This document shows, piece after piece, positions 13,598 through 14,111 of a stretch of 17,975 nucleotides of DNA. The position numbers and the translations under genes are program-made. Within the stretch, counting starts at the first letter, position 1, and each line of letters begins with the position of its first letter. The notes beneath the pieces are model-generated. The model ran no database searches. It was not told the DNA's origin and saw only the letters and a program-made list of their open reading frames with translations. This stretch comes from Patescibacteria group bacterium (GTDB lineage Bacteria > Patescibacteriota > Patescibacteriia > Magasanikbacterales > GWA2-37-8): the NCBI GenBank assembly GCA_004321885.1, contig SCQK01000003.1, positions 1 through 17,975 of the forward strand, given 5' to 3'.

Positions 13598-13617
13598 CAA
13601 AATACCCCACCCTTTAT

Positions 13618-13638
13618 CCCTCCCCTAAAAGGGGAGGG
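13618..13638. repeat. family B hairpin CCCTCCCC-TAAAA-GGGGAGGG in the tRNA-Arg trailer
   Basis: 8-bp perfect stem preceded by AAATACCCCACCC. The same trailer architecture follows tRNA-His. Confidence 0.65.
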
Positions 13639-13729
13639 GCAGGGGGTGGGGTAATTTTTATCCACAGCTACACTGTACAGTTATGATTTTTTAATATATA
13701 ATTTAGCGCACATAAAAAGGAGAAACACC

Positions 13730-13915
13730 ATGCCCATGCTCGTAGCGAGCGCCGAGCAAGCGCTCACGAACACGCAACGCCGCGACGCCAGGTCCCGCGA
13801 GAGGGAGCGCTCCCAACAGGAGCTCCGCGAACGGGAGCGCGCCGCGGCGGCAACGATAGCAATGAACCCGCGCGTGCTGGGCAAGCACGCGCACGTTCTT
13901 TCCACGAAAGCATGA
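13730..13915 (+). CDS. small Arg/Glu-rich protein (61 aa) encoded in a GC-rich island
   Basis: AAAAAGGAGAAACACC-ATG is a strong SD at ideal spacing. An AT-rich promoter-like TATATAAT lies upstream. The terminator at 13965-14006 lies downstream. Local GC is well above the window average, so overlapping minus-strand ORFs (13681-13974, 13703-14137) are taken as GC-driven artefacts. Confidence 0.5.
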   Translation: MPMLVASAEQALTNTQRRDARSRERERSQQELRERERAAAATIAMNPRVLGKHAHVLSTKA

Positions 13916-13964
13916 CCGCCGGCCGAAGCTCTTAAAGTCCGGCCGCGGTTTCCCATTACCCCCA

Positions 13965-14006
13965 AAGCGCGCACGGTCTGGAGGAACCGGCGCGCTTTTG
14001 TCTTTT
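13965..14006 (+). terminator. strong intrinsic terminator
   Basis: GCGCGC(a)CGGT-CTGGAGGA-ACCGGCGCGC stem (10 bp with one bulge) followed by TTTTGTCTTTT. Confidence 0.8.
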
Positions 14007-14010
14007 AATC

Positions 14011-14039
14011 TTGCAAAAACAGCGAATTTTTGATAACAT
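14011..14039 (+). promoter_or_regulatory. candidate promoter for tRNA-His
   Basis: TTGCAA-N17-TAACAT with an upstream TG (extended -10-like). Confidence 0.4.
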
Positions 14040-14057
14040 TGTGATAAACGAATGCTG

Positions 14058-14103
14058 GATTCCTGCTCCCGCCAAAGGCGGGCAGGCGCAGGCAGGAATG
14101 ACA
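14058..14103. repeat. family A hairpin in the tRNA-His leader
   Basis: GGATTCCTGC-TCCCGCCAAAGGCGGGCAGGC-GCAGGCAGGAATGACA; the loop itself holds the small hairpin CCCGCC/GGCGGG. Confidence 0.75.
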
Positions 14104-14111
14104 ATATTGAT

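Follow-up and report, generated by a model that had tools for sequence, protein, structure and literature searches.

A GC-rich promoter-to-terminator unit with a candidate small gene between tRNA-Arg and tRNA-His in a Magasanikbacteria-like member of the Patescibacteria

We analyzed the spacer between two neighboring tRNA genes, tRNA-Arg(TCT) and tRNA-His(GTG), on contig SCQK01000003.1, and in particular a GC-rich island in this spacer that carries a 61-codon open reading frame (ORF). The window, by which we mean the whole stretch of DNA analyzed, is an entire contig of 17,975 nt from the metagenome-assembled genome (MAG) of an uncultured Magasanikbacteria-like member of the Patescibacteria, with a mean GC content of 0.48. 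An earlier note on this DNA had described two tRNA genes with a 514-nt spacer holding a self-contained transcription unit; ARAGORN and Rfam both placed the two tRNAs on the plus strand, and we located the promoter-like site, Shine-Dalgarno sequence (SD), ATG, ORF and terminator of the proposed unit. Thus, a self-contained GC-rich unit running from promoter to terminator does lie between tRNA-Arg and tRNA-His. The features of the region, in 5' to 3' order, are as follows.

13484-13512, plus strand: promoter-like site of tRNA-Arg, TTGATT-17-TAGAAT (promoter scan)
13526-13598, plus strand: tRNA-Arg(TCT), the upstream boundary of the island (ARAGORN; Rfam tRNA, 74.5 bits)
13601-13659, plus strand: long hairpin resembling repetitive extragenic palindromic (REP) elements, core CCTCCCCT-AAAA-AGGGGAGG, then TTTTT (inverted-repeat and repeat-family analysis)
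13674-13702, plus strand: sigma-70-like promoter P1, TGTACA-17 nt-TATAAT, 10/12 matches (promoter scan)
13717-13722, plus strand: SD, AAGGAG, 7 nt 5' of the start codon (ATG at 13730), within an A-rich leader with only weak pairing in the predicted fold (motif search)
13730-13915, plus strand: 61-codon ORF, MPMLVASAEQALTNTQRRDARSRERERSQQELRERERAAAATIAMNPRVLGKHAHVLSTKA (translation)
13795-13813 and 13825-13843, plus strand: in-frame direct repeat with 30-nt spacing, CCGCGAGAGGGAGCGCTCC and CCGCGAACGGGAGCGCGCC (repeat analysis)
13864-13897, plus strand: strong hairpin in the 3' part of the ORF, GCGCGUGCU-GGGCA-AGCACGCGC, with flanks GAAC/GUUC, then UUCUUUC (terminator scan, fold)
13914-13950, plus strand: hairpin in the 3' untranslated region, GACCGCCGGCC...GGCCGCGGUU (fold)
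13964-14006, plus strand: intrinsic terminator, AAAGCGCGC-[17-nt loop with inner helix]-GCGCGCUUU, then UGUCUUUU (sequence, fold)
14011-14039, plus strand: weak promoter-like site P2 for tRNA-His, TTGCAA-17-TAACAT, with TG at -15/-14, 8/12 matches (by eye)
14056-14105, no strand assigned: nested REP-like palindrome, a variant of ATTCCYGC-N4-GCRGGAAT, just 5' of tRNA-His (repeat analysis)
14113-14185, plus strand: tRNA-His(GTG), the downstream boundary, with G-1 encoded at 14112 (ARAGORN, Rfam)

These features fall into three units, the first comprising the promoter, tRNA-Arg and its hairpin, the second P1, SD, ORF and terminator, and the third the weak promoter-like site, the REP palindrome and tRNA-His. 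The hairpin at 13601-13659 is probably a terminator or insulator of tRNA-Arg. From P1, transcription would be expected to start near 13709-13711. The SD stands at the distance from the ATG that the earlier note had given, and the translation of the ORF is exactly the 61-amino-acid sequence it reported. The terminator had been described as a 10-bp GC stem with a U-tract; the hairpin (13964-13998) and the U-tract are both present, with an outer stem of 9 bp (6 G-C and 3 A-U) around an inner helix of 4-6 bp, followed by TTTTGTCTTTT. We therefore find what defines an intrinsic (Rho-independent) terminator, a G+C-rich stem-loop that leads into a U-tract (13964-13998, then UUUUGUCUUUU). A simple terminator scan passes over this hairpin because its loop exceeds 8 nt, and flagged positions 13870-13892 in the hairpin within the ORF, which is terminator-like and overlaps two His codons. 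P2 scores under the threshold of the promoter scan; analogous TTG...TGATAAAAT sites stand 5' of tRNA-His in related genomes, and P2 may serve as the tRNA-His promoter.

The GC content of the island is 0.67 (13726-13998), with the best 200-nt window reaching 0.69 (z=3.0). The ORF had been said to lie far above the rest of the window in GC content, which overstates the contrast: a second GC island, formed by the Arg/Gly-rich C-terminal tail of PNPase (GGARGPRFGGGGFGGRGGDRGGRGPRGPRR; 9740-9875, minus strand), equals it, with a GC content of 0.695 over the 200-nt stretch 9676-9875. No excess RNA structure was found in that stretch (z=+0.83), and we used it as an equally GC-rich coding control.

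Several properties of the ORF are those of a gene. The pattern AAGGAG-N5-9-ATG has a single match in the window, where 0.49 would be expected for the 36 kb of the two strands together, and this sole match coincides with the start of the GC-rich body. Since most genes in the window have no SD, the SD-ATG pair is not a background feature. The GC content at the three codon positions (0.69/0.53/0.79) has the order that is usual for coding sequence (P=0.008 by chi-square and 0.009 by permutation), and the periodicity is best in this frame. The two copies of the direct repeat, spaced by 10 codons, encode SRERERS and LRERERA; they differ at three positions, of which two are synonymous (GAG/GAA, AGG/CGG) and one exchanges Ser for Ala, and the RERER motif is kept. 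The bases of the repeat also build the long central hairpin of the predicted fold. Arg codons in the ORF are mainly CGC, the preferred Arg codon of the host, and the plus strand has more A than T, as do the coding strands of the neighboring genes. The predicted peptide, of 61 residues and 6.9 kDa (pI 11.4, net charge +5), is rich in Arg, Glu and Ala. AlphaFold2, run on the single sequence with no alignment, gave a model with a long helix over residues 5-45 and a second, short helix (confidence, pLDDT, 78); this model is compatible with a charged single helix and is not diagnostic.

To place the island in context, we compared the spacer with those of related genomes, using a PNPase-anchored scan that yielded 80 syntenic loci (L002-L081). 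The tRNA-Arg(TCT) and tRNA-His(GTG) genes are adjacent and on the same strand, as in the window, in 30 of the 80 loci; tRNA-His is inverted in two further loci (L023 and L049). Spacer length in the 30 genomes ranges from 17 to 847 nt (median 87.5), with eight spacers above 250 nt, and the island was seen in none of the 30. The long spacers hold unrelated cargo. In three of them (L051:3599-4007, L031:3652-3995 and L022:3942-4208, on the minus strand of each locus) we found a 38-amino-acid Lys/Arg-rich ORF, MNSAYRARIRHCKKNTKIGKILKTKTKILRKRVSKISI, with a TTGAAA-17-TATAAT site upstream and apparently on one transcript with tRNA-His. The pairwise codon differences among its copies are mostly synonymous (synonymous to nonsynonymous 9:2, 11:6 and 12:4), so that this ORF is a real gene; Pfam, PHROGs, NCBIfam and PADLOC gave no family for it. 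In three loci (L006, L011 and L075) the spacer is occupied by a conserved ORF of about 179 amino acids, in L027 by a 203-amino-acid Cys-rich ORF with an SD, and in L015 by a free-standing LAGLIDADG homing endonuclease. The spacer thus varies in length and holds unrelated cargo under a conserved tRNA pairing, and therefore we consider it, on this comparison of sequences, to be a hypervariable hotspot for the gain and loss of small genes, with the island as one lineage-specific occupant.

Other results weigh against the ORF as a protein-coding gene. Its host-codon log-odds score, computed with the codon table of the contig and normalized to the ORF's own base composition, is -22.7 bits, which is lower than that of all 131 true-frame 61-codon windows of contig genes and falls in the middle of the wrong-frame distribution. 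The third codon position is G or C in 49 of the 61 codons, compared to 37.8 expected from host usage (P about 0.001). In the minimum-energy fold, pairing takes in about 65% of the bases of the ORF, and the ORF folds with z=-2.9 on the plus strand and -3.6 on the minus strand, compared to +0.83 for the PNPase tail. Only four frames are open over the length of the ORF, not all six as had been stated; frame +1 has three stops and one minus frame has one. A peptide rich in R, E, A, L and S is also the product to be had from translating GC-rich palindromes, and the ORF could thus be incidental. Thus the ORF has the SD-ATG and the periodicity of a coding sequence and lacks native codon usage. If the ORF is a small gene, its excess of GC at third positions and its odd codon usage would follow from a sequence that is non-native or young.

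The peptide also stands alone in the protein collections, which likewise counts against it. The earlier note had looked to homologues of the peptide for confirmation, and no homologue was found in any collection searched. We found none among 5.8 billion protein clusters, in which the peptide itself is also missing, so that no pipeline called the 61-amino-acid ORF; indeed, no gene call is on record for this ORF or for the 97- and 91-amino-acid ORFs antisense to it. An exhaustive phmmer search of 1.84 billion representative proteins gave no homologue, and comparison with Pfam, PHROGs, NCBIfam and PADLOC gave zero families at E<=0.1-1. The lone phmmer match, a 1520-amino-acid repeat protein, was an artifact, being the sum of about 20 weak matches. 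We also considered that the island might be a fragment of a foreign gene on the minus strand, and rejected this because the antisense frames have neither homologues nor families. Patterns derived from the peptide had no match beyond chance in viral and metagenome contigs.

The RNA searches were similarly negative. The assignment of the spacer to a known non-coding RNA had been named in advance as the result that would speak against a gene, and Rfam assigned nothing to it: in Rfam 15 the two tRNAs alone reach the gathering score, with no other family, riboswitches and introns included, in the window, and a search of 13400-14300 at E<=10 with lax filters gave nothing within 13660-14050, the other matches being hairpin look-alikes on a REP element. 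RNase P and signal recognition particle (SRP) RNA, brought to mind by the motifs AAAGUCCGG and CAGGUCCC...GGGAGC (CR-I, helix 8), had no Rfam match at E<=10, and for RNase P the motif order is wrong. We likewise rejected 6S RNA, as the fold is not rod-like, and transfer-messenger RNA (tmRNA), for which ARAGORN was negative (none was called); neither had an Rfam match at E<=10. By these searches the island matches neither a known RNA nor a known protein.

It might nevertheless encode a small non-coding RNA, structured and about 290 nt long (roughly 13709-14000), or an RNA with a dual function, with the GC-rich hairpins as the functional part and the ORF incidental. A GC-rich body bracketed by a promoter and a terminator is what such a gene would look like, the codon usage of the ORF is non-native, and annotation pipelines made no protein call here. 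Moreover, folding is significantly better than in dinucleotide shuffles, with z=-2.8 for the unit as a whole, -2.9 for the ORF and -3.06 for the 3' region, while the GC-matched coding control is not structured (+0.83). There is also a precedent in RttR/tpr of E. coli, where an Arg-rich mini-ORF lies in a structured RNA beside tRNA-Tyr. Nonetheless, we consider a small RNA rather unlikely. The lax Rfam search gave no family, a covariance model of the predicted fold matched nothing in 0.9 Mb of related genomes, and an RNA-only role leaves the perfect SD-ATG and the 3-base periodicity unexplained. Furthermore, z is about -3 on both strands and the minus strand folds better still, so that the fold is not strand-specific, which points to plain DNA palindromes rather than to a strand-specific RNA.

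A further explanation is that the island is non-functional DNA, and the palindromes of the window bear on it. Two intergenic REP-like families are present. The first, (TGTC)ATTCCYGC-N4-GCRGGAAT(GACA), has five exact copies, compared to 0.01 expected, and its copies sometimes extend to inverted repeats with arms of up to 37 nt (4867-4944). The second, CCTCCCCT-AAAA-AGGGGAGG, has seven pattern matches in the window, compared to 0.04 expected; copies lie just 3' of tRNA-Arg and tRNA-His, with a looser one (3 mismatches) 3' of tRNA-Leu, and those 3' of tRNAs may act as terminators. The sites are as follows.

2404-2423, 2456-2475, 4896-4915, 12982-13001 and 17715-17734: exact copies of the ATTCCYGC-N4-GCRGGAAT family (pattern count)
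9689-9735 and 14056-14105: variants of the same family
13619-13637, 14204-14222, 16929-16947, 9447-9465 and about 13428-13445: sites of the CCTCCCCT-AAAA-AGGGGAGG family

We also note that the AAAAGGGGAG arm of the second family doubles as the SD-like sequence of a pilin gene (13415) and of the glycosyltransferase gene (14232).

Members of these families flank the island on both sides (13601-13653; 14056-14105). The hairpins of the island itself are not copies of either family, and no further copy of them was found in the window or in the related genomes. Logan contigs of SRR8426592, which is from the same sample and contains this organism, stop at two REP elements (~13004 and ~14191), so that the island is left uncovered. 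The island could be a decaying acquired GC-rich remnant, a local cluster of GC-rich palindromes in a spacer prone to recombination or, with lower probability, an assembly artifact; its expression signals would then be there by chance or be taken from the promoter region of tRNA-His. The orphan status of the island in all collections searched speaks for this explanation, as do its absence from every related spacer, the abundance of REP-like palindromes in this genome (with two next to the island), the equal strength of the palindromes on either strand and the break of independent contigs at the REP elements. We judge non-functional DNA to be about as improbable as a small RNA. Besides the unique hairpins, a promoter, a unique SD-ATG, a periodic ORF and a terminator in the right order would be an unlikely coincidence, and the reduced genomes of Patescibacteria keep spacers short, as the median at the Arg-His site attests. 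For an assembly artifact in particular, a 270-bp chimeric insert with syntenic sequence on either side would be an unusual error.

We considered that the ORF might instead be a leader peptide, part of an attenuator that senses the decoding of Arg and/or His and controls read-through into tRNA-His. The ORF lies directly 5' of tRNA-His and 3' of tRNA-Arg, and it has 10 Arg codons, two of which are AGG (decoded by the adjacent tRNA-Arg(UCU)), and two His codons (CAC-GCG-CAC) in the 3' arm of the terminator-like hairpin at 13870-13892; the 38-amino-acid ORF of the three relatives, moreover, apparently uses the tRNA-His promoter. We regard such an attenuator as highly improbable. The His codons are only two and are not adjacent, and we see no alternative pairing that would make an antiterminator. 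Another strong terminator lies further 3', tRNA-His is preceded by a promoter-like site of its own, and the relatives lack the element. We know of no leader-peptide attenuation control described for a tRNA gene.

As for the origin of the island, tRNA genes had been invoked as integration targets and a foreign source proposed. The idea of a non-native insertion holds up indirectly, from the variable spacer cargo in the 30 relatives and the GC excess at third codon positions; classical integrase-mediated integration at a tRNA does not, since we found no integrase, recombinase or phage gene on the contig and no duplicated tRNA end. No att-like repeats or terminal inverted repeats around the island were convincing, the best direct repeat (15/20 matches) overlapping a REP element. 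Searches for similar DNA were also negative: blastn found nothing in phages and only chance matches in plasmids (32-46 nt, E=0.08), exact DNA patterns gave no match in metagenome and viral contigs, and blastn, nhmmer and tblastn found no relative of the island in the 80 related loci or elsewhere in the window.

Weighing these explanations, we favor the view that the island is an orphan small-protein gene, monocistronic and lineage-specific, that occupies a hypervariable tRNA spacer of Magasanikbacteria-like Patescibacteria, and we give this a probability of roughly 0.45. It accounts for the full and correctly ordered set of expression signals, it agrees with the presence of real protein genes in the Arg-His spacer of relatives, and it sits well with the lack of any RNA family match. 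We infer the transcription, translation, function and origin of the unit from its sequence, as follows. RNA polymerase would initiate at P1 (13674-13702), giving an A-rich leader of roughly 20 nt that would offer AAGGAG to the ribosome. Translation from 13730 would then yield a very basic, mostly helical peptide of 61 residues, transcription would end at the hairpin and U-tract (13964-14006), and tRNA-His would be transcribed from its own weaker promoter. The charged RERER-type helix most plausibly binds nucleic acid or ribosomes, judging from composition alone. The extra GC and the hairpins would reflect a non-native sequence, acquired or recently arisen, and/or a stabilizing structure of the mRNA.

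The remainder of the contig carries mainly housekeeping genes. These are genes for two nucleotide-salvage enzymes, a CN-hydrolase, PNPase, an NYN-domain protein, S15 and the glycosyltransferase, together with a deoxyhypusine-synthase-like and an agmatine-deiminase-like gene. The best PNPase match, among Candidatus Magasanikbacteria and related MAGs, reaches 75% identity, and in the collections no relative of the downstream glycosyltransferase exceeds 40%. The NYN-domain gene, for a predicted RNase, lies between rpsO (S15) and pnp (PNPase) on the minus strand (12074-12625), with a 17-nt overlap with the end of rpsO. The contig also has several paralogous type IV secretion pilin genes, as is common in the Patescibacteria radiation. 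These T4SS_pilin genes are on the minus strand (13059-13472 and 15355-17975), one of them 5' of tRNA-Arg and the others in a downstream array of at least four, probably five; the paralogues have conserved blocks in common, and GAATAGAGAATAGAGAATAGAGA repeats occur at 16273-16327 and 16844-16898. Gene starts throughout the contig are mostly preceded by A/T-rich sequence with no SD, and an SD-like sequence is found at a minority of them.

Among known systems, the island most resembles the distal region of the E. coli tyrT operon, in which RttR (RtT RNA, RF00391) and the overlapping tpr likewise place a short Arg-rich ORF in a structured RNA beside tRNA genes. In E. coli, tpr encodes a 29-amino-acid 'protamine-like protein' (MRSFDQGSTRAPARERCRRQRPEGRSAQR), overlaps RttR and lies next to tRNA-Tyr (bioRxiv 10.1101/2024.07.17.603846). 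With tpr as with the island, it is ambiguous whether the coding or the RNA role matters. There is, however, no sequence or structure relationship between the two: the RtT model gave 134-138 bits for three copies on the E. coli control locus and no match in the window at E<=10. Moreover, RtT is a tandemly repeated unit (about 178 bp, 3' of the tRNA), whereas the island is single-copy and has only its internal 30-nt-spaced repeat, with no tandem unit. The island also comes with a promoter-like site and a terminator of its own, and has an ORF of twice the length. RtT is processed out of the tRNA transcript.

The Arg-His cargoes of related Magasanikbacteria genomes occupy the same slot in the same orientation, several with a TTG...TATAAT site and some then with palindromic hairpins; the 38-amino-acid ORF among them is likewise tiny and very basic. 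These cargoes have no detectable DNA, protein or structure similarity to the island, and they match the GC content of their own genomes, whereas the island is 19 points above its genome. Genomic islands that tyrosine integrases insert at tRNA genes have non-native-looking sequence adjoining the 3' end of a tRNA, as here, but the island is only about 0.4 kb, with no integrase or phage gene and no direct repeat of the tRNA 3' end. Clusters of REP elements and bacterial interspersed mosaic elements (BIMEs) resemble it as an intergenic series of GC-rich hairpins, with family members on both sides; the hairpins of the island are, in contrast, unique in the window and among the relatives, and are set within a frame of promoter, SD, ORF and terminator. 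The island therefore qualifies neither as a tRNA-integrated island nor as a REP/BIME repeat.

Thus, the island is a mini-gene or small RNA that lies beside tRNA genes, is lineage-specific and carries no annotation; it is currently unique, but its kind is a familiar one. For a single island nothing surprising has been demonstrated, and it may be non-functional. A bolder view, which we think quite unlikely, is that it is the founding and as yet only instance of a new small gene that enters the tRNA spacers of Patescibacteria without an integrase, either a dual-function RNA with a RERER peptide (an analogue of RttR/tpr) or a micro-protein that binds nucleic acid or ribosomes, with the Arg-His spacer as a landing pad for mini-cassettes. 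If the island is expressed, the very reduced genomes of Patescibacteria, in which every gene retained is presumed to matter, have a further unannotated micro-gene, and it is one that escapes both gene callers and family databases. More reusable than the island is the observation that the Arg-His spacer varies across Magasanikbacteria: a conserved tRNA pair whose spacer swaps small, unrelated cargoes with no integrase in sight is a natural assay for the entry and exit of tiny genes in streamlined genomes.

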